The position numbers and the translations under genes are program-made. The notes beneath the pieces were generated by a model. It made no database searches and had not been told where the DNA came from. It worked only from the letters and a program-made list of their open reading frames with translations. This document shows positions 9,925-33,657 of a stretch of 64,000 nt of DNA, one piece after another; the first letter of the stretch is position 1, and each line of letters opens with the position of its first letter. The stretch comes from a virus (lineage: Duplodnaviria; Caudoviricetes): IMG/VR virus record IMGVR_UViG_3300009031_000221, positions 288,001 through 352,000 of that record, one strand, 5' to 3'.

Positions 9925-10617
9925 ATGAAGGCATATTGGTTCAGCAGTAATGGGGAAGCGAAGTATGGCACCGTGAAGGACTACCTTATAGGCCAAACCT
10001 ACAAGGTAGAAGGGGAAATCAAGCCTTGTTCCCACGGGCTTCATGCCTCCGTATATCCCTTCGATGCCTTGGGATATGCAGGACGTGGGCGTACATTGGA
10101 TATCGTGGAGCTTGGCGGAACCGTTGTCTCGGGGAACCCAGACAAACATGCCGCAAGTGAACGTACACATGTTCAACGTATTGATGCTACTGATATGCTC
10201 CAGGAGTTCGCCCGGTGGTGTGCATTGAGTGTGGCTTACCAATGGCCCGAAATGCCTGCAATCATCCGGCAATACCTTGAAACCGGAGATCGGGAGCTTC
10301 GTAATGAAGCTGCCACTTGTCACAATACCATTATGGATTCATGTGATTACGGCACGCAATCGTCATTGCGGGCTTCTGATGCCACCTACTACGCCTTCTA
10401 TGATATCGGTCTGGCGGCTCTTGGGGCGGAATATGCAGCCCAATCTGCCTTTGACGGGGAGGTTGAGTTCTACAGGAATGCACACGACGTAGATGATCCC
10501 GATTATGACTCCAATTTCCGGGACAAGATCCGGCAAAAGCAAAGGGACAAGTTTCAGGAACTCGCGGACAAGTACTTCGCACAGGCATTGACATATGCAA
10601 ACCCCGATCAAGTGTAA
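9925..10617 (+). CDS. MKAYWFS-family paralog (DUF7666-like N-domain plus helical C-domain)
   Basis: C..GLHAS..P.DAL.Y, VELGG, EFARWCAL, YLETGD; paralogs at 21347, 22018, 44204, 45301. Confidence 0.75.
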   Translation: MKAYWFSSNGEAKYGTVKDYLIGQTYKVEGEIKPCSHGLHASVYPFDALGYAGRGRTLDIVELGGTVVSGNPDKHAASERTHVQRIDATDMLQEFARWCALSVAYQWPEMPAIIRQYLETGDRELRNEAATCHNTIMDSCDYGTQSSLRASDATYYAFYDIGLAALGAEYAAQSAFDGEVEFYRNAHDVDDPDYDSNFRDKIRQKQRDKFQELADKYFAQALTYANPDQV

Positions 10618-11432: not shown

Positions 11433-12002
11433 ATGACAACCTACATTTCTATCGACATCGAGGCAGACGGACCCATCCCGGGCTCCTATTCGATGATGTC
11501 CCTCGGGGCTGCAGCATTCCAACTGGACAACAATGATCCAGGTTGGAAGATGATTGCCACATTCAAGCACAACCTCCTTCCTCTGCCCTCGGCGCAACGA
11601 GATCCGGACACCATGAAATGGTGGGGTAAACAAGGCCCCGCTTGGGAACGGGCTACCGTTGGGGCTATCGATCCCGGCCAAGCCATGAATGAATTCGTAG
11701 CTTGGTGCAAAGCGCTCCCAGGGCCACTAGTCCTTGCAGGCTATCCCATTACCTACGATTTCCAGTTCGTCTACTGGTACACCGTCATGTTCACCGGATA
11801 CCCGACACCATTCGGATTCCAAGGGCTAGACATCAAGACCTTGGCCTTTGACCGCATGGGATGCTCCTTCAAGGATGCCGCAAAACGAAACATGCCCAAG
11901 CGCTGGTTCCGTAATGCTCCCCCGCATACGCATGATGCTCTGGATGATGCTATCGGCCAGGGCATCCTTCTCATGAACATTCTCAATGATGAGGCACCAT
12001 GA
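11433..12002 (+). CDS. DEDDh 3'-5' exo(ribo)nuclease (Rv2179c-like)
   Basis: ISIDIEADGP, YDF.F, DIKT, HDALDDA. Confidence 0.85.
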   Translation: MTTYISIDIEADGPIPGSYSMMSLGAAAFQLDNNDPGWKMIATFKHNLLPLPSAQRDPDTMKWWGKQGPAWERATVGAIDPGQAMNEFVAWCKALPGPLVLAGYPITYDFQFVYWYTVMFTGYPTPFGFQGLDIKTLAFDRMGCSFKDAAKRNMPKRWFRNAPPHTHDALDDAIGQGILLMNILNDEAP

Positions 12003-12286
12003 ATCCAGTTTGCGAAACTTGTAGCGGAAGATGCTGCACATTCAAGGAATTCGGCATTTGGCAGGATGTTTTCCACGGCAATATGAGGGCCAATCACCAT
12101 GATTGCCCCGATTGCAAGGATGGCACCAAGCCGAACCTCACCAAGAAGGGGCAACCCCGGAAACGGGTAGCCAAACTTGCAGTATTGACGCCGGAACAAG
12201 CTGCGGCTGAGAAGAAGGCCTTCTTTGAGCAATACCCCAAGGTCAAAGAGTACTTCGTGCAACACGTAGATCCCGACGCACAATGA
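11999..12286 (+). CDS. Hypothetical Zn-finger protein
   Basis: CETC..RCC, CPDC; ATGA coupling. Confidence 0.6.
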   Translation: MNPVCETCSGRCCTFKEFGIWQDVFHGNMRANHHDCPDCKDGTKPNLTKKGQPRKRVAKLAVLTPEQAAAEKKAFFEQYPKVKEYFVQHVDPDAQ

Positions 12287-16777: not shown

Positions 16778-17746
16778 TCAATATGACGTGGTGGTCGGGG
16801 AGATGCCATAATACAGAATCTGTTGCTTGACAAGACCTTCATAGACACCAAATCGATTTGCTATAATGGGTATTGGTACCCCTTGATCAATTAATACTTG
16901 AATTATTTCTTTTGGCAAACTGAGTTTGGGCCTGCGTCCTGTATATGTACTTGTGACCAAGTGATGGAGGTCTGCATCAGGCCATGTCCGCTGCCTACCT
17001 TTGGTATTACCAAGGGTGGATAGCGCTGTATGGATAAACCCTATAGGGACCTTCATACCCAGGGCTATATGCTTAGGGGTGCTGCCTGCATCGGTCAGTT
17101 GTCGTACTAGTGCTAGGTCAATCATGCTATTGACTGCATCCATGTCACGACAAAGAAACCCTGCCGCTAACTTATAGCGTAGGGTATCCAGGATATAAGG
17201 CTTGATGATATCGAGGAAGGCACGTGCTTGGACTTCTCCTCGAACCACGATACGTGATGAAGTCCCAACCTCAGCCATCGCTTGAATGCCGAAGTGTGCA
17301 AGGATGGCAAGGGCTACGTCATGACTACGTTCATGACATGAGAACGAGGGCCAGTGTTGGTGCATGCCGTCATCCATATACCACACTGCTAGGGCTAAGG
17401 GTGTCATCATAGGTATGACAGACTCATGGAACTTCTTACGGAGCTTGCCGTCACATGATGGCGTAGAATTGGCATAGAACATTTCCCACCAAGGAAGCAA
17501 TTCATCGTATTTCCGTACACGGAAGCCTACAGCCCCTTGATGAGTAGCCTTCTTTGGGGGTACCTCTGTTAATGTTCCTGCATAATCGCCCCAGTATGCC
17601 ATCTTCCACAGGACATATTCCAACTGCCCCTTGGCATGGAATTCACTATAGGACGCACCTGTGGCGCCACGGCCTAGGGATCCATCCCCAAGCATGGATC
17701 CCAGTAATATTGATTGTAGTGGTTCGGTCAAAACGAGATTTTTCAT
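16778..17746 (-). mobile_element. Free-standing LAGLIDADG homing endonuclease with C-terminal HTH-like repeats
   Basis: ILLGSMLGDG and LALAVWYMDDG motifs, YVLWK. Confidence 0.85.
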
Positions 17747-17989: not shown

Positions 17990-18916
17990 CTAGGACATGA
18001 AGGGGCTGAGTGTCCAGTTGCCGATAGTCTGGCGTAGGAACACTAGGGCACGGGATACAGTGGCCTTGCTGATGCTGAGGGACTGAGCTATCTCACCCCT
18101 CTCATATCCCTCAATGACCATAGGTAGGATACGTAGGGCCGTGGCCTCGAGTGCTTGGTCCTTCTTTGTAGTACTCTGTTCCTTGATGTACGTAATGAAA
18201 TCCCGCATCAGGATAGGGTCATGTACCTGTACACTAGAACCACCACCATTGAACTGCGTCTTGCCACAGGCATCTGCTACGTCCATCGACACAGCCTGCC
18301 CATCCTCATAGCCAATGATCCCTATCTGCTCAACAGACCTCTGCCTTGATACCTTGCGATGGTAATTCGACAGGATGCATCCTGCTACCATGTGGACGTA
18401 GTGCCCAAAGCTAGACTTCGCAGGATCCCACGCACACGTGCCACTGTTGCGTACCAGGAGCCCCTTATAGACCTCCTGCAATACATCCTCAGGCTCATAC
18501 CCCATCGCATAGATACGCCTGCCATACCCCGCAAATAACAACTTCGCTACCTCATGCCCTCTTCTCTGCAAATCTATCCCCTGACTCGGACTCTTGGCCC
18601 TAGGGGTATTTGGGGCTACCGTATTTGGGGCTACCGTAATTGATGTAGGCGATAGAGGCCCTGTAGCAAACATATCCAATATGGGAAACCCAGTAGTTAA
18701 TTGATTTTCGTATTTCCCCTGCCGGAAATACCTGTCCCATGTCCAATGCCTAGCCTCAGGATGTCCTGTCAATCCAATGAGTAACTGCCGTTTAGTGGGG
18801 AATACTTTTCCCTGAGCCTTGTATTTCCCATCAGGCAATAGGGCAATGGGAATGGCACCATCCTCATATCTGCTATAAATGGTAGATACCAAGCCAGTAT
18901 CAGCAACGGTTAACAT
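17990..18916 (-). CDS. Phage-encoded sigma-70/ECF-like RNA polymerase sigma factor with N-terminal extension
   Basis: Region 2-like EDVLQEV...WDPAKSSFGHYV...L.NYHRK and region 4 HTH GYERGEIAQSLSISKATVSR. Confidence 0.75.
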   Translation of the reverse strand: MLTVADTGLVSTIYSRYEDGAIPIALLPDGKYKAQGKVFPTKRQLLIGLTGHPEARHWTWDRYFRQGKYENQLTTGFPILDMFATGPLSPTSITVAPNTVAPNTPRAKSPSQGIDLQRRGHEVAKLLFAGYGRRIYAMGYEPEDVLQEVYKGLLVRNSGTCAWDPAKSSFGHYVHMVAGCILSNYHRKVSRQRSVEQIGIIGYEDGQAVSMDVADACGKTQFNGGGSSVQVHDPILMRDFITYIKEQSTTKKDQALEATALRILPMVIEGYERGEIAQSLSISKATVSRALVFLRQTIGNWTLSPFMS

Positions 18917-19195: not shown

Positions 19196-19669
19196 ATGGT
19201 GTCTAATACCCAAACTGGAGGCGAAACGAGGATGGCGGCATATACGGATAGAGTGACGGTGATACGGGAGTTCAATACTCTGGGAGATTTGATGTGGCAG
19301 TTTCGCACGTGTGCCTGTGCGAAGCATCTCCTGGGCTACAATTCGAAGAAGTCGTGGTATTGCGGTACTTGCAAGATAGTTTTGGACCCGCCGGCGACGT
19401 GGTGGCCTGGGTTTATCTGGGACCATGTAGAGGGATGGTTTGGGGGAGACGTGGGGACGTGTTGTAAACGTGGTCATCCTTACGCAGAGCATACGTTGGC
19501 AGAGATCGCGGCGACGTATGACCCTCCTAGGGATCCTGACGAGTTGTTTAAGGCCTTGTTGGGATCTGGGGGTCACAAGGATTTGTTTCGGGTGATGACC
19601 GGGCTTTATCCTGTGGAGTTTGACGAGGACGGCAACGTAGAAGTACTTGAGGAGAAGGGCGATGAGTAA
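19196..19669 (+). CDS. Hypothetical protein with Cys/His motifs
   Basis: C.CAKH, CGTC, CKRGH. Confidence 0.6.
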   Translation: MVSNTQTGGETRMAAYTDRVTVIREFNTLGDLMWQFRTCACAKHLLGYNSKKSWYCGTCKIVLDPPATWWPGFIWDHVEGWFGGDVGTCCKRGHPYAEHTLAEIAATYDPPRDPDELFKALLGSGGHKDLFRVMTGLYPVEFDEDGNVEVLEEKGDE

Positions 19670-20240
19670 TTGGTGGTTGACTTGGTATTTGACGTCTGAT
19701 TTCCTACCGAAGGCGGATAGGGTAGTCTTGGGGTGGTATCCGGATTGTGATTGGAGGCCTGGGGTTGTCTATGCGGTGTGCAGGGTCGAGTTTGACGGGC
19801 GTTCGGATGAGTGGCAGTCCGTGAATTTGAACATCAACATGCGGGACATAAAGAATCCGACTGGGGCTCCTTTGTATTGGCAGGAGTTGCCTACGGGGCC
19901 TGGGGGAGAGGATCCGTATGCGTCATGGGACCAGCAAACGGCTCATTATGAGATGCGGGTAAGCAAGCAGAAGTACGAGAGTGACCTTGTAGCGGCGATT
20001 ATGGGTAGCGATGGGGTAGAGAAGCGGGATTTCCGTATACAGCAAGTATGCCCAATGGAGTATCAGGGCATCGATACGGTGTGTTTGTCGTTTCACGATT
20101 ACACGGATCTACGGAAGTATCGTCGGGATTGTTTGCATGATGTAAATGACAATGAGGGGGATCGGGGCAAGTTGTTTGAAACGTCTGTATTGGTATCAGG
20201 GCAGGTACCATCAGGGACGATGTGGTGCGTCTTGAAGTGA
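19662..20240 (+). CDS. Hypothetical protein, paralog of 20253
   Basis: VLGWYP, PLYW..LP.GP.GED.YA, LVAAI, GVEKR.F, CLS..DY shared. Confidence 0.7.
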   Translation: MSNWWLTWYLTSDFLPKADRVVLGWYPDCDWRPGVVYAVCRVEFDGRSDEWQSVNLNINMRDIKNPTGAPLYWQELPTGPGGEDPYASWDQQTAHYEMRVSKQKYESDLVAAIMGSDGVEKRDFRIQQVCPMEYQGIDTVCLSFHDYTDLRKYRRDCLHDVNDNEGDRGKLFETSVLVSGQVPSGTMWCVLK

Positions 20241-20252
20241 AGGAGAAGGGCG

Positions 20253-21011
20253 ATGAGTAACCTTGACAACAATAGTGACAAGTGGATTTCGGTATTGGAG
20301 ACGTTGCCTATAGACTGGCGATTTGTGTTGGGTTGGTATCCATCGGAGGATCCGAACGGGATCAACACGGTGTTTCGTTCTGAGGGGCGTTGGTGGGGAA
20401 TCAACCTGTGCAATTCGAGGTTTGGCAATGGTGATTGTGCTGCTCCTTTGTATTGGCGATATTTGCCGTCTGGGCCTAATGGGGAGGATGTCTATGCGCC
20501 GCACCCTGCGATAGCGGAGAGGGCAACGGCCTGGATCAAGGCGGAGGCGCTTGTGGCAGCGATTGTGAAGGCTGAGGGCGACGGAGTCGGGGTAGAGAAG
20601 CGAGAGTTTGGTAGTGTCCTGTCTCCTGATACCGATTGGAAGGAGATTGAAACGATATGTTTGTCCTTACCTGATTACTTGCATATTCGGCGTAACCATT
20701 TCGTGTCATTGACGGGTGTAAATGACACGAAGAGTGAACGTGGGGAGTTGTTTGGTGCGAATGACGGGGCATCCGGTACGCCTGGACAGATCCCGTGCCC
20801 AATCAGATGCCATTTGACGGCCTTCATCTACCGTCAGTCCCTGGGGCATGGCCAGTTCGATCATGTCCATGATGATCAGGACGTTCCCATCGTACATTTG
20901 CAGGTTTTGGATCCTCTGATCAACCACGAGGTCGAAGATCGGGCCATAGAATGTCTGCATGACCTGAATGCGAGGATCGTAATCCCGGCTGAATACCAGA
21001 TTGGCAACTGA
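20253..21011 (+). CDS. Hypothetical protein, paralog of 19662, with a run-on tail antisense to the next gene
   Basis: Similarity ends at RGELF (about 20755); remainder overlaps 20706-21317. Confidence 0.6.
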   Translation: MSNLDNNSDKWISVLETLPIDWRFVLGWYPSEDPNGINTVFRSEGRWWGINLCNSRFGNGDCAAPLYWRYLPSGPNGEDVYAPHPAIAERATAWIKAEALVAAIVKAEGDGVGVEKREFGSVLSPDTDWKEIETICLSLPDYLHIRRNHFVSLTGVNDTKSERGELFGANDGASGTPGQIPCPIRCHLTAFIYRQSLGHGQFDHVHDDQDVPIVHLQVLDPLINHEVEDRAIECLHDLNARIVIPAEYQIGN

Positions 21012-21317
21012 CCGCTCAGGGTCAAGGAACAGAACTCGGTTGTTTGGATCCTTGTCAATCCACCCCTTGGCGATTGCACGAAGAACTGTCGTTTTCCCCG
21101 TGTTCGCCTCGCCTGCGATAACATGGTCATTGGCGAAGGTACATTCATTTATCAGGCTACGGCCACCATCACCGTAAATGACGCCGAAGTTCATCGCCTT
21201 GGCCATTTGCCGATTCCGCTTCGGGTCAACCTTGGCCTCAACGGCACGGGGCAGGAAAGGCACAGCCATTGCGGCCAGGGCAGTGGCGAGGAAGTTACGG
21301 CGTGTCGGGTTCGTCAT
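20706..21317 (-). CDS. Chimeric protein: Tat-like signal, PolA motif-B-like peptide, RecA/DnaB-like P-loop fragment
   Basis: TRRNFL; RQMAKAMNFGVIYG; GEANTGKTT, VLFLDPE, LIIMD, CPVI..KQL. Confidence 0.65.
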   Translation of the reverse strand: MTNPTRRNFLATALAAMAVPFLPRAVEAKVDPKRNRQMAKAMNFGVIYGDGGRSLINECTFANDHVIAGEANTGKTTVLRAIAKGWIDKDPNNRVLFLDPERSVANLVFSRDYDPRIQVMQTFYGPIFDLVVDQRIQNLQMYDGNVLIIMDMIELAMPQGLTVDEGRQMASDWARDLSRRTGCPVIRTKQLPTFTLRVIYTRQ

Positions 21318-21346
21318 GGGGAGTCCTTGTATGTAGATCGATCTAT

Positions 21347-22021
21347 TTACGCAATTGGCGGGGCAATTAGGTCTACCTGATTGAACGCCGCCTCGATCAT
21401 TTCGTTGAACTTGGCACGCTGAATTGATTTTGCCTCATCATAGCGAGCTTCAATGCCAGTGTTGGTACGAAAGCCTCGTTCAGCAAATGCCTCTCGGGCA
21501 GCGCGGGCGGCGCTACGACATTCACGAACAACACTGCTAGGGGTATATCCCGTTGAAGCATGCACGGCAGCAAGGCTGGCTTGATAACCTGATTCAGTAC
21601 GGGTATTCAGCATGGCTTCGTATGCTATCTCACGTGATTCGGCACGAATGGTTTCATCCCCTGTTTCCAAGTAACGCTTGACAAGCTCAGGGCAATCCCA
21701 ATCGGAAACAACCTGAAGGACACACCAACGGGCATATTCACGGAGGGTTGAAGTTGCATCAATCCGTTTTAGGTGCGTCCGTTTACTTGCGGCAACCTTA
21801 TCCCCATGATGTTCTACGATGGTTCCGCCTAGTTCTACTAGGTCAAGCGTTGGGCTACCTGCGGCTGCATAATGCAGTGCGTCGTACGGGTCTACTGAGG
21901 CATGCAGGCCATTGTGGCAAGCAGTGATTTCGCCTTCCTGAATGTAGGGCTCAGGGCGAACCTCATAGATGATAGTGCCGTGCTGTGCAAGCCCTTTGTT
22001 ACTGAACCAGTAGGCTTTCAT
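21347..22021 (-). CDS. MKAYWFS-family paralog
   Basis: CHNGLHAS.DP.DAL, EYARWC.L, YLETGD. Confidence 0.75.
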   Translation of the reverse strand: MKAYWFSNKGLAQHGTIIYEVRPEPYIQEGEITACHNGLHASVDPYDALHYAAAGSPTLDLVELGGTIVEHHGDKVAASKRTHLKRIDATSTLREYARWCVLQVVSDWDCPELVKRYLETGDETIRAESREIAYEAMLNTRTESGYQASLAAVHASTGYTPSSVVRECRSAARAAREAFAERGFRTNTGIEARYDEAKSIQRAKFNEMIEAAFNQVDLIAPPIA

Positions 22022-22653
22022 GGAGTTTCCTTGGCGAATGCTGCATCGATCATTTCGTTGAACTTGACACGGAGAGGAATGATGGCGATTTCATCCGCGA
22101 TTGTATGTGAAGTTGTAGCGTCGACGACAGCGTATGCGGCTTCTTCCGCATCCCCTGCGACAACGTTAGGGTGACATGCCATGCAGGCAGCCCTATTCGC
22201 ACGATGAACAACCGTACGATCACCCTTTACCATAAGCACCCTATTAGCATCATAGACGGCCTTGTATGCCTTCTTCTGAAGGGTAGGATCCCCCGTTTCC
22301 AGGTATTGCTTGACAACTTCCGGACATTCCCAAAGGTGAATGACCCGAAGGGCACACCAACGAGTAAACTCACGGATAATCGGAAGGGCATCGATACGCT
22401 TGATGTGCGTACGATGGCTTGCCACGTACTTGTGATTCAATCCTATACCGTGTTCCTTGATCTGGCCATCAAGCTCCACGATATCGACCATGTTCCCATT
22501 ATTGGCGAACAACAATGCTTGGAAAGGATCCTCACCGGCATGGAGCCCGTGTATACAAGGGACAACAGGCTCATCCTCTACAAAGGGCTCAGGGCGAACT
22601 GTGTAGGTGTTTCCGTGGGATCTTCCACCCTTGCTAAACCAATAGGCTTTCAT
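22018..22653 (-). CDS. MKAYWFS-family paralog
   Basis: CIHGLHAG.DP..AL, EFTRWCAL, YLETGD. Confidence 0.75.
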   Translation of the reverse strand: MKAYWFSKGGRSHGNTYTVRPEPFVEDEPVVPCIHGLHAGEDPFQALLFANNGNMVDIVELDGQIKEHGIGLNHKYVASHRTHIKRIDALPIIREFTRWCALRVIHLWECPEVVKQYLETGDPTLQKKAYKAVYDANRVLMVKGDRTVVHRANRAACMACHPNVVAGDAEEAAYAVVDATTSHTIADEIAIIPLRVKFNEMIDAAFAKETP

Positions 22654-24564: not shown

Positions 24565-24941
24565 AGCGGGTCTTCCTCAATGTCATGCTGTGTCCCAAGG
24601 CAAAGGAATTCCAGTTCATCATGGATGTGATCCAGTTGGGCCTGCCGATACTGGGTCGCAGCGGCGATCAACATGATCTTCCTGGGACTCGAGTGATCGA
24701 ACAGCAATCCATAGTAGCCCAAAGCATCGGTAGACGCTTCCGCCAACTTCGTTGCAAGCTCGAGCACATCAGGCGTAGGAGGCCAGTTGAAGAAGTTCAT
24801 GACTGCCTCAGGCGTTTTCGTGACCGGATGCCCCGTACGACGCAGAAACTGCCCTGCATCCAACACACGGTTGCGGCCTTTGGATTCGTCGCTCTGCATG
24901 TAGGCGGAGATCAATTCAGATGTCAAGTAATCGTCAATCAT
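24561..24941 (-). CDS. Hypothetical protein
   Basis: Coupled. Confidence 0.6.
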   Translation of the reverse strand: MIDDYLTSELISAYMQSDESKGRNRVLDAGQFLRRTGHPVTKTPEAVMNFFNWPPTPDVLELATKLAEASTDALGYYGLLFDHSSPRKIMLIAAATQYRQAQLDHIHDELEFLCLGTQHDIEEDPL

Positions 24942-25602
24942 TTGTGTATCCTTTATAGTGCGGGAACAAGGCGGAACGCGCTTGAATCCCTAGATTCTGT
25001 CCTCTGCAATCATCAAGGGGTTTGGTCGCATGCTTCCAAGGATTCCCGATAATGTCCTGTTTTTCCATAGGGGAGTCGGAATAGTATGCTGCCATGCCCA
25101 GTTGAGTGAATAGCACACTCACAGGTCCCTCCTGGGTATCCGAAATAGCTACGGGGTGTACCTGAATAGGGATACAAACTTGATTGACTCGTGGGTCAAT
25201 CTCGCGGGCGGTTCCCACCAAGGCAGTGATGCAGTCGTTCAATGAAATCCGCAGTGATTCAATGGCATTATTGGCAATAACCTCCATTGAATCACTGGGG
25301 TTTGTGTTGTATGCCAGTTCAAATAGCGGGATAGTTACCCTCCTGCCTGTCCGGTTCTCTAGAATATCGTTCCCATCCTCCCCGAGGAAGAATACAGGTG
25401 TGTTCGGATCTTTGTCATAGATAGGGGCACATCCTGAAGGCAAATCATCGAAATGAACGTGAATGGACTCCCATAGGATACCCTTTGGAAGGATGTTTGC
25501 TTTAGATACCAGGGGAGTGGCAAGGGATGATCGGGTTTGGAAGCCGAGAATGGCAGCGATCGATACTCCCAATGTATTGTGGAGGAATGTTCGACGATTC
25601 AT
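24934..25602 (-). CDS. Tat-signal protein resembling an internally deleted major capsid protein
   Basis: MNRRTFL; LPSGCAPIYDKDP...GEDGNDIL....RRVTIPLFELAYN matches my recollection of a large-phage capsid family. Confidence 0.55.
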   Translation of the reverse strand: MNRRTFLHNTLGVSIAAILGFQTRSSLATPLVSKANILPKGILWESIHVHFDDLPSGCAPIYDKDPNTPVFFLGEDGNDILENRTGRRVTIPLFELAYNTNPSDSMEVIANNAIESLRISLNDCITALVGTAREIDPRVNQVCIPIQVHPVAISDTQEGPVSVLFTQLGMAAYYSDSPMEKQDIIGNPWKHATKPLDDCRGQNLGIQARSALFPHYKGYTND

Positions 25603-32756: not shown

Positions 32757-33052
32757 TTGTGTACCCCATAGTGCTTGGGCTTCTCGACTCCGCTTTCCTT
32801 GGCGTACTCCCCGCGTTGTGCAAATACGTTAGCATTCCAACGTCCGCCATAGGGCTTGTATGTTTCCATATTGTTCATCCACTTTACTGCGACCTCGTAT
32901 CGTTCCTTCCAGGTAAACGGCATGGGTTCGTGGTACAAGTCCCATCGGACTTTACGCCACATGCCAAAGAACACGTAGTAGGGGACGGCACGCTCCACGA
33001 TAATGGTTTCGCCGATGATCCTTGTGCGATAGGCTTGTTCGATTAGTGTCAT
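32753..33052 (-). CDS. Hypothetical protein
   Basis: ATGA coupling. Confidence 0.6.
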   Translation of the reverse strand: MTLIEQAYRTRIIGETIIVERAVPYYVFFGMWRKVRWDLYHEPMPFTWKERYEVAVKWMNNMETYKPYGGRWNANVFAQRGEYAKESGVEKPKHYGVHK

Positions 33053-33657
33053 GCGACTCCTTTATCCCACCAGTCATCATACTTGTAACCGGGCGTGTTC
33101 TTGACGACTTCATCCATACCCCTGGTCTTGAAGATGCCGTCTCGGTCTTTGAGGGTCACCCAACCTTGAGCACAATCGACTTCAGGATGCAATGCGGAGA
33201 GGGCGATGACATTGTCTGCGGTTCGCATCCATTTATCCGGGATGGATTCTCCATAGTACATGACAACATAACGATGTCCTGACTGAAGGCAAACCCACTT
33301 CAACAAGTCTGGATCGAGGCAGCAATCCCGAGAACTCCTCGTGTATTCAACTGCCTGATCCCCATGTTGATTGGTTTCGGAAAGCCCAAAGCTAGCCCGA
33401 TAGCGCTTGAATGCCGAAACTGCTAAGTCATGCCATTTCGATCCTATGCAAGGGGCATTGGATACGTGAACAAGCGTCATCGTGCCCAAGGGCTCAATAG
33501 GCACTAGGCGACTCACAATGACCTCAGGGTGCCAGTAATGCCCCATCTGCATATTGGACACGGGCACATGGGCATCCGCCGCCTTGGCTACCCTGGCGCC
33601 AACGAACAACCCACCGAGGGCGAGGAATGACTTGGACAGGAAGTTGCGACGGTTCAT
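33049..33657 (-). CDS. Tat-signal-containing hypothetical protein
   Basis: MNRRNFL, hydrophobic core, AKA-A cleavage-like site. Confidence 0.65.
   Translation of the reverse strand: MNRRNFLSKSFLALGGLFVGARVAKAADAHVPVSNMQMGHYWHPEVIVSRLVPIEPLGTMTLVHVSNAPCIGSKWHDLAVSAFKRYRASFGLSETNQHGDQAVEYTRSSRDCCLDPDLLKWVCLQSGHRYVVMYYGESIPDKWMRTADNVIALSALHPEVDCAQGWVTLKDRDGIFKTRGMDEVVKNTPGYKYDDWWDKGVA

Follow-up and report, generated by a model that had tools for sequence, protein, structure and literature searches.

The window analysed here comprises 64,000 nucleotides, bases 288001–352000 of a 536,053-bp groundwater virus record that is estimated to be complete (52% G+C). The standard genetic code fits the translation of this genome; an alternative code was weighed, and no sign of one was seen. 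The gene in question is P0001, an open reading frame (ORF) on the minus strand that closes a tightly packed, co-directional block of minus-strand genes (23216 down to 20706). Gene calling on 11 near-identical contigs includes P0001, whose region has no sequence differences across the four groundwater runs that hold the phage. An AAGGA ribosome-binding site, read from the sequence, precedes the ATG by 6 nt, and the ATG itself is found 29 nt past the stop codon of the preceding co-directional gene. This site and the tight operon spacing support the assigned start. A second ORF, P0002, converges on P0001 from the plus strand and overlaps it. The features of the locus are as follows (window coordinates).

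20706–21317, minus strand: P0001, 203 amino acids plus stop
21324–21328, minus strand: AAGGA ribosome-binding site of P0001
21234–21317, minus strand: twin-arginine translocation (Tat)-type signal peptide, residues 1–28, with TRRNFL, the hydrophobic h-region ATALAAMAVPFLP, a basic c-region and predicted cleavage between VEA and K
21138–21221, minus strand: basic linker, residues 33–60, with a core resembling motif B of family-A DNA polymerase (PolA) at R36–G49 (21171–21212)
20736–21137, minus strand: predicted RecA-superfamily P-loop core, residues 61–194 (AF2 model; Foldseek, VIA-align and ESM Atlas)
21087–21113, minus strand: Walker A GEANTGKTT, residues 69–77
21015–21035, minus strand: strand VLFLDPE, residues 95–101
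20856–20882, minus strand: Walker B VLIIMDMIE, residues 146–154
20742–20771, minus strand: strand CPVIRTKQLP, residues 183–192, with Q190; the last family-homologous segment of P0001
20706–20741, minus strand: last 11 codons (TFTLRVIYTRQ) and stop, antisense to the paralog-conserved part of P0002 and modelled with low confidence
20742–20756, no strand assigned: rearrangement junction, with KQLP (minus) and GELF (plus) read from the same in-phase codons
20253–21011, plus strand: P0002, 252 amino acids, convergent; over its last ~84 codons it reads through P0001 in antisense, in phase

A family of Tat-signal P-loop proteins

An exhaustive HMMER (phmmer) search of 1.84 billion representatives recovered six relatives of P0001, which are 191–279 amino acids long (E-values from 3e-16 to 2.6e-4), share 28–39% identity with it and are located on related huge-phage contigs. 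The nearest homolog, P0004, aligns with P0001 over residues 6–193 (E=3e-16). A family hidden Markov model (HMM) matches P0001 at E=5e-69, and the homology is significant over the signal, the core and the PVIRT.Q strand. In the alignment of the seven Tat-bearing proteins (A1, P0001 and its six homologs), every sequence starts with M..RR.(F/L)(L/I), followed by a hydrophobic stretch and an A.A-type site, with a c-region that is often basic. All seven then have G....GK(T/S), A.AW...DP.N.V, the Walker B motif L.L.DM.E and PVIRT.Q.P after the signal. The invariant residues are R6, R7, G74, K75, A83, D90, P91, N93, V95, D151, E154 and P192. An eighth member, found in one relative (L022:992–1477, plus strand), has no signal and a degenerate Walker A (SGRSKA); it lies directly upstream of the gene for the Tat-bearing P0005, with a 4-nt overlap. 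The contigs of the homologs reach 520,740 bp and have many accessory genes in common with the window, including DUF7666 genes, a gene for a 105-aa cysteine-rich protein and one for another Tat-signal protein.

No model in Pfam, PHROG or NCBIfam matched any member of this family at its cut-off. Near and protein searches of a phage collection gave only weak RecA matches and no further P0001 relatives, and a search of viral contigs for related loci with P0001, P0004, P0009 and P0005 returned nothing. In a word-indexed protein search, P0001 alone returned itself, and the family alignment returned four known members. The metagenome matches of alignment A3 consisted only of oligopeptide-type ABC transporter ATPases and were rejected as false positives. 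Literature searches turned up no account of P-loop proteins with a Tat signal in phages.

Judging from these sequence comparisons, the P0001 family is real, rare and unnamed, and belongs to a clade of huge environmental phages. Its layout is a Tat signal, a variable basic linker, a core-only RecA-superfamily P-loop nucleoside triphosphatase (NTPase) and a family-specific tail of ~45 residues. With both the signal and the core conserved in six homologs, each of the two is certainly beyond chance. Because their pairing is common to homologs at such identity levels, it is ancestral to the family rather than assembled from the core genes of this phage.

For the signal, TRRNFL occupies residues 5–10 of P0001, and R6 and R7 are invariant in all seven Tat-bearing members. 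The N-terminus thus has the twin-arginine consensus, h-region and A.A-type site by which Tat substrates are recognized in sequence, and cleavage is predicted after A28. The Pfam TAT_signal model gives 17.3 bits against a cut-off of 22.7. As in known twin-arginine signals (PF10518, TIGR01409), the signals of this family, which are 26–30 residues long, combine (S/T/N)-R-R-x-(F/L)-(L/I) with an h-region of moderate hydrophobicity, a c-region that has a basic residue and an A.A-type site. In contrast to usual Tat signals, those of this family carry a P-loop NTPase that the phage encodes and that shows no sign of a redox cofactor. A search of the phage genome found no TatC or TatA gene.

For the core, an AF2 model from the single sequence was unusable, with a predicted local distance difference test score (pLDDT) of 37. 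With an eight-sequence alignment, residues 61–194 were modelled at pLDDT 70–88, whereas residues 1–60 and 195–203 remained below 50. Foldseek placed this core with RAD51 paralogs, RadA, RecA, UvsX, KaiC and Rho (E down to 7e-6), and VIA-align with DnaB-type helicase, UvsX, KaiC and RadA (Z of 11–12 over ~140 residues). The neighbours among viral structures in BFVD are phage DnaB and RecA proteins, the DnaB/RecA-type neighbours of the ESM Atlas model agree, and the PDB sequence match is to phage UvsX (E=0.01). Both defining features of the RecA superfamily, an alpha/beta core fold and the combination of Walker A GxxxxGK(T/S) with Walker B hhhhD, are present in P0001. G74 and K75 of Walker A are invariant in the seven Tat-bearing members, as D151 and E154 of Walker B and P192 of the last strand are in the family. 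In an alignment with UvsX, E101 in VLFLDPE corresponds to the catalytic Glu of RecA/UvsX and may have the same role, and Q190 would be the counterpart of the RecA phosphate sensor Q194. These models indicate that the mature form of P0001 is a RecA-superfamily NTPase limited to the core; it has both Walker motifs, an acidic residue following strand 2 and a strand that bears a Gln.

Several phage core-only RecA-type ATPases were compared with P0001, namely Sak4 (PF13479 AAA_24, phrog_2872), UvsX/RecA (PF00154), the DnaB C-terminal domain (PF03796), KaiC-type proteins (PF06745) and AAA_25 (PF13481). P0001 resembles them in its fold, in Walker A GxxxxGKT and Walker B hhhhD, in the acidic residue that follows strand 2 and in a Gln strand after a long helix; its size is like that of the 170–260-aa phage KaiC/RecA-like clusters in the Atlas. 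Unlike these proteins, P0001 has an N-terminal Tat signal and lacks the DnaB N-terminal domain and the RecA N-terminal polymerisation helix. The family also has its own tail (LI.G..P..W), which is missing in P0001. None of the named Pfam families AAA_25, RecA, DnaB_C and AAA_24 is reached at its cut-off; the best is AAA_25 (20.4 vs 27 bits), and the homologs are below as well. Nor does P0001 qualify as a DnaB-type replicative helicase, being 203 amino acids long, without the N-terminal domain, and matching phrog_243 (E=0.021) over residues 135–191 only. The phage has a separate 545-aa DnaB elsewhere in its genome. An origin of the core in the phage's own helicase, recombinase or any other of its ORFs was considered and rejected, with BLAST E-values above 0.8 except for the PolA motif and above 1 for the other ATPases.

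The initial annotation had described P0001 as an export signal, a polymerase-like stretch and a RecA/DnaB-like ATPase in one protein. This three-part description holds, and the ORF and every motif listed for it, including Walker A, Walker B and CPVI..KQL, are present in the 203-aa translation. Tat, PolA and RecA/DnaB-type models each match their segment, with all scores falling below the cut-offs: in Pfam these are TAT_signal (E=0.0045), DNA_pol_A (E=0.0015), AAA_25 (E=4e-4) and Bac_DnaA (E=5e-4), and in PHROGs UvsX-like, DNA polymerase and DnaB-like families. The ATPase part, taken for a helicase fragment, is better described as a compact RecA-fold core. Alignment to the phage's own proteins, which had been proposed as a check, gave 10 of 21 identical residues with its PolA (E=0.17) and no significant similarity to its helicase. 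Homologs were also sought, and the six that were found have both signal and core. A layout common to six homologs in other huge phages argues against the suggestion that P0001 is a new gene built from scraps of core genes.

Four further ORFs in the genome, all on the minus strand, have MNRR.F(L/I)-type signals, each continuing into a hydrophobic stretch and an A.A-type site.

Window 24934–25602, minus strand: Tat-type-signal ORF
Window 33049–33657, minus strand: Tat-type-signal ORF
Genome C1:351884–352450, minus strand: Tat-type-signal ORF
Genome C1:29929–30300, minus strand: Tat-type-signal ORF

None of their cargos is related to another or to P0001, and the four ORFs were rejected as members of the P0001 family once the signal was taken off. 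Because four more such signals are found on unrelated cargos, export-tagged accessory proteins appear to be a habit of this phage. The loci of the relatives also hold more Tat-type-signal ORFs (L020:6833–7405, L023:2826–3293 and L016:11545–12276).

The 3' end of P0001 and the convergent gene P0002

The homologs of P0001 continue past the Q.P strand for 32–90 residues (32 in the 191-aa member, 50–90 in the rest), with a conserved LI.G..P..W, whereas P0001 stops 11 residues past this strand. The family HMM covers P0001 at positions 2–197 of 239 (E=2.6e-71), and tail positions 198–239 (~42) are missing. A search of all frames of the window and the genome found no remnant of the family tail, whether frameshifted or displaced.

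The opposite gene has a matching boundary. P0002 shares 39% identity with the gene upstream of it (19647–20240), only to about residue 168–181 (about 20756–20796), and no homologs of P0002 beyond this paralog were found. GELF of P0002 and KQLP of P0001 use the same four codons (20742–20753), with the two reading frames exactly in phase. By a codon-usage statistic, the plus strand is preferred left of ~20756, and right of it the signal is neutral to slightly minus, with the flip at ~20742–20756; homology supports P0001 to the right of ~20756. Across the overlap the statistic is ambiguous (0.03 bits per codon). In this genome, an in-phase antisense frame stays open over 84 codons with a probability of 0.23, which is enough to account for the 84-codon tail of P0002. 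The gene calls of a Logan contig kept P0001 and dropped P0002, and no terminator-like site was found between the two genes. In a sediment metagenome of another study, a 151-nt contig agrees exactly with 20755–20814 before diverging, which fits a breakpoint at this position. An exact 35-mer from 20758–20792 had no match in metagenome or viral contigs, and the un-rearranged allele was not recovered.

The shortness of P0001 is thus the product of a rearrangement and not of design, and this copy of the gene may be impaired by it. On the simplest account, a single deletion, perhaps across microhomology of a few bases, would have taken both 3' ends together with the spacer between them. The two genes would then have been joined tail-to-tail with their codons in phase, such that each ends inside the antisense of the other.

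P0002 and its paralog at 19647–20240 each have LGWYP and PLYW..LP.GP.GED and belong to no known family. With the gene at 19196–19669, the pair makes up an island of three plus-strand genes flanked by minus-strand blocks.

The polymerase-like linker and alternative explanations

The linker segment RQMAKAMNFGVIYG, at residues 36–49 of P0001, fits the family-A motif B pattern R-x-x-x-K-x-x-x-F-x-x-x-Y-G. It also resembles the O-helix form of this motif (R-x-x-x-K-x-x-N-F-G-x-x-Y-G), including a Leu six residues past the Gly. The match to DNA_pol_A (PF00476) spans residues 33–60 and profile positions 204–231 only, with 17.9 bits for the protein and 21.8 bits for the segment against a gathering cut-off of 34.3. 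P0001 is not a member of PF00476, since motifs A and C are lacking and the whole-domain score is under the cut-off; unlike PolA, it also has no palm or thumb. Bacterial contigs from the same samples match 21172–21204 with 3 mismatches in 33 nt; these are probably bacterial polA, and no inference was drawn from them. Elsewhere in the window, a 95-aa ORF (11999–12286, plus strand) with two CxxC pairs starts at the end of a gene for an Rv2179c-like DEDD exonuclease (11433–12002). This ORF ends in TPEQAAAEKKAFFEQYPKVKEYF (12161–12286), located 9 kb from P0001, which weakly matches the PolA profile just past motif B (positions 224–259; E=0.011 genome-wide, 0.095 per protein).

One explanation for the linker is a true scrap of a family-A polymerase gene, comprising the O-helix with motif B, which was acquired by illegitimate recombination in the ancestor of P0001, P0004 and P0007 and was kept with or without function. 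The segment alone matches DNA_pol_A at E=1e-4, four NCBIfam PolA models match the stretch, and a PDB search with the segment returned ~60 PolA chains (Bst, Taq, Klenow, plastid Prex and others), which make up nearly all of its matches and always align at motif B. However, the similarity is confined to 14–28 residues of a linker modelled with low confidence, and no polymerase sequence flanks it. A scan of every six-frame ORF of the genome gives two occurrences of the strict pattern R...K..NFG..YG, one in the real PolA (C1:376–3366) and one in P0001, with 2e-4 expected per genome; over a scan of 250,000 windows, ~2.4 chance cases would be expected. P0004 retains R..AK..NF...YG.....L with the same spacing as P0001, and P0007 retains R.LAKA, yet neither matches the PolA profile, and the linkers of four of the seven members are unrelated. 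YG.GG is common to P0001 and the phage's own PolA, whereas the alignment between these two stretches is not significant, as given above. The second weak PolA-like stretch 9 kb away is compatible with a scrap as well. The basic residues have another explanation. A positively charged start of the mature domain keeps Tat cargo out of the Sec pathway, and K29, K33, R34, R36 and K40 would fit such a start. Taken together, a polymerase scrap appears rather unlikely, and we lean towards chance or convergence as the source of the motif B likeness. That the stretch is a functional mimic is very doubtful.

The initial annotation had also raised the idea of a decoy that shows polymerase and helicase epitopes to replication-sensing defences. 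The gene does lie in an accessory region, and two of its homologs are 3–5 kb from an anti-Pycsar Apyc1 gene. Nevertheless, a conserved and cleavable-looking Tat signal would take the protein out of the cytoplasm, where such sensors act, and the polymerase-like piece is missing from most family members. The core is not similar to the helicase or recombinase of the phage, and no defence or anti-defence family was matched. The decoy gained no positive support from these results and is highly improbable.

A less remote alternative concerns this copy alone. P0001 may be a dead remnant, in the sense that both it and P0002 lost their function in the rearrangement, with open frames that persist only because the event was recent. 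The loss of the last ~42 family positions, the ending of both ORFs in the antisense of each other and the ambiguous codon statistic in the overlap would all follow from such an event, and without variation among the four groundwater runs selection is unreadable, as no ratio of nonsynonymous to synonymous substitution rates (dN/dS) can be formed. On the other hand, the start codon and ribosome-binding site are intact, as are both Walker motifs and the Glu and Gln positions, and in the model no part of the folded core is missing up to its final strand. A short tail is also found in the 191-aa member. We regard inactivation as possible, though somewhat doubtful.

The explanation that we consider probable is that P0001 belongs to a rare, unnamed huge-phage family, which combines a Tat signal, a linker, a RecA-like core and a tail, and that this copy has been shortened at its C-terminus. 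Several observations weigh against this explanation. All profile matches of P0001 (TAT_signal, AAA_25 and DNA_pol_A) are under the curated cut-offs, and with eight known family sequences in all, the conservation statistics are thin. The Glu at the E101 position is kept in five of the seven members and absent in two. For the truncation, the sediment contig is a single contig at depth 2, and the last 11 residues of P0001 align loosely with a strand of the homologs, which makes the exact breakpoint uncertain; the shorter tail of the 191-aa member counts here too. Finally, conserved Walker A and B motifs are puzzling in an exported protein, and the envelope role is a guess.

Possible role and neighbouring genes

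RecA-superfamily P-loop NTPases are cytoplasmic machines, and in the periplasm ATP is normally unavailable. An invariant twin-arginine signal that is kept together with intact nucleotide-binding motifs is therefore unexpected. It poses the question of what job a RecA-like domain could have outside the cytoplasm, or what other use a Tat-type signal could have in an infected cell. For function, the most reasonable inference is export to the envelope. P0001 would fold in the cytoplasm, perhaps with a nucleotide bound, and its signal would be recognized by the Tat machinery of the host (TatBC). The protein would then be exported, cleaved after VEA28 and act at the cell envelope.

The most plausible job there would be periplasmic binding of nucleic acids or nucleotides, for example for excluding the DNA of superinfecting phages, although we hold even this to be unlikely. 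The bacterial HXS system, by way of an effector that is matured and periplasmic, interferes with phage DNA entry (PMC13128918). HXS and T4 Imm/Sp offer a comparison in the manner of working only, in that a periplasmic protein could meet incoming DNA; there is no relation to P0001 in sequence or fold. Alternatively, the Tat signal may serve the co-export of a partner, as in the Tat 'hitchhiker' pairs HybO/HybC and DmsA/DmsB. This alternative is raised by the signal-less paralog before a Tat-bearing gene at one locus, whereas P0001 has no adjacent partner gene. The wider proposal would be that a clade of huge phages exports a RecA-type NTPase through Tat, either as a periplasmic gatekeeper of DNA or nucleotides (in superinfection exclusion or lysis timing) or as the carrier of a cytoplasmic partner. 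It is speculative and a good deal more likely wrong than right; if true, P0001 and its homologs would be the first exported RecA-family protein.

The striking 'mosaic' appearance of P0001 may come from ordinary processes, namely an inherited two-part architecture, a look-alike motif in the linker and a rearrangement that fused convergent genes. For annotation, a new small family is defined and the P0001 copy is flagged as truncated.

Among the neighbouring genes, DUF7666 paralogs are found at 9925–10617 (plus strand), 21347–22021 (minus strand) and 22018–22653 (minus strand) of the window, the latter two in tandem directly upstream of P0001. A DUF7666 gene is also present near P0004 in the 520-kb relative. 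At 3 kb from the rearranged locus, the window has a gene for a free-standing LAGLIDADG_2 homing endonuclease (16778–17746, minus strand; E=9e-15), adjoined by a sigma-like gene (17990–18916). The Apyc1-type metallo-beta-lactamase genes near two family members are located at L020:2593–3495 and L023:4204–5154. The phage's own Apyc1 homolog (C1:432649–433566; 38–44% identity) lies ~124 kb from P0001.

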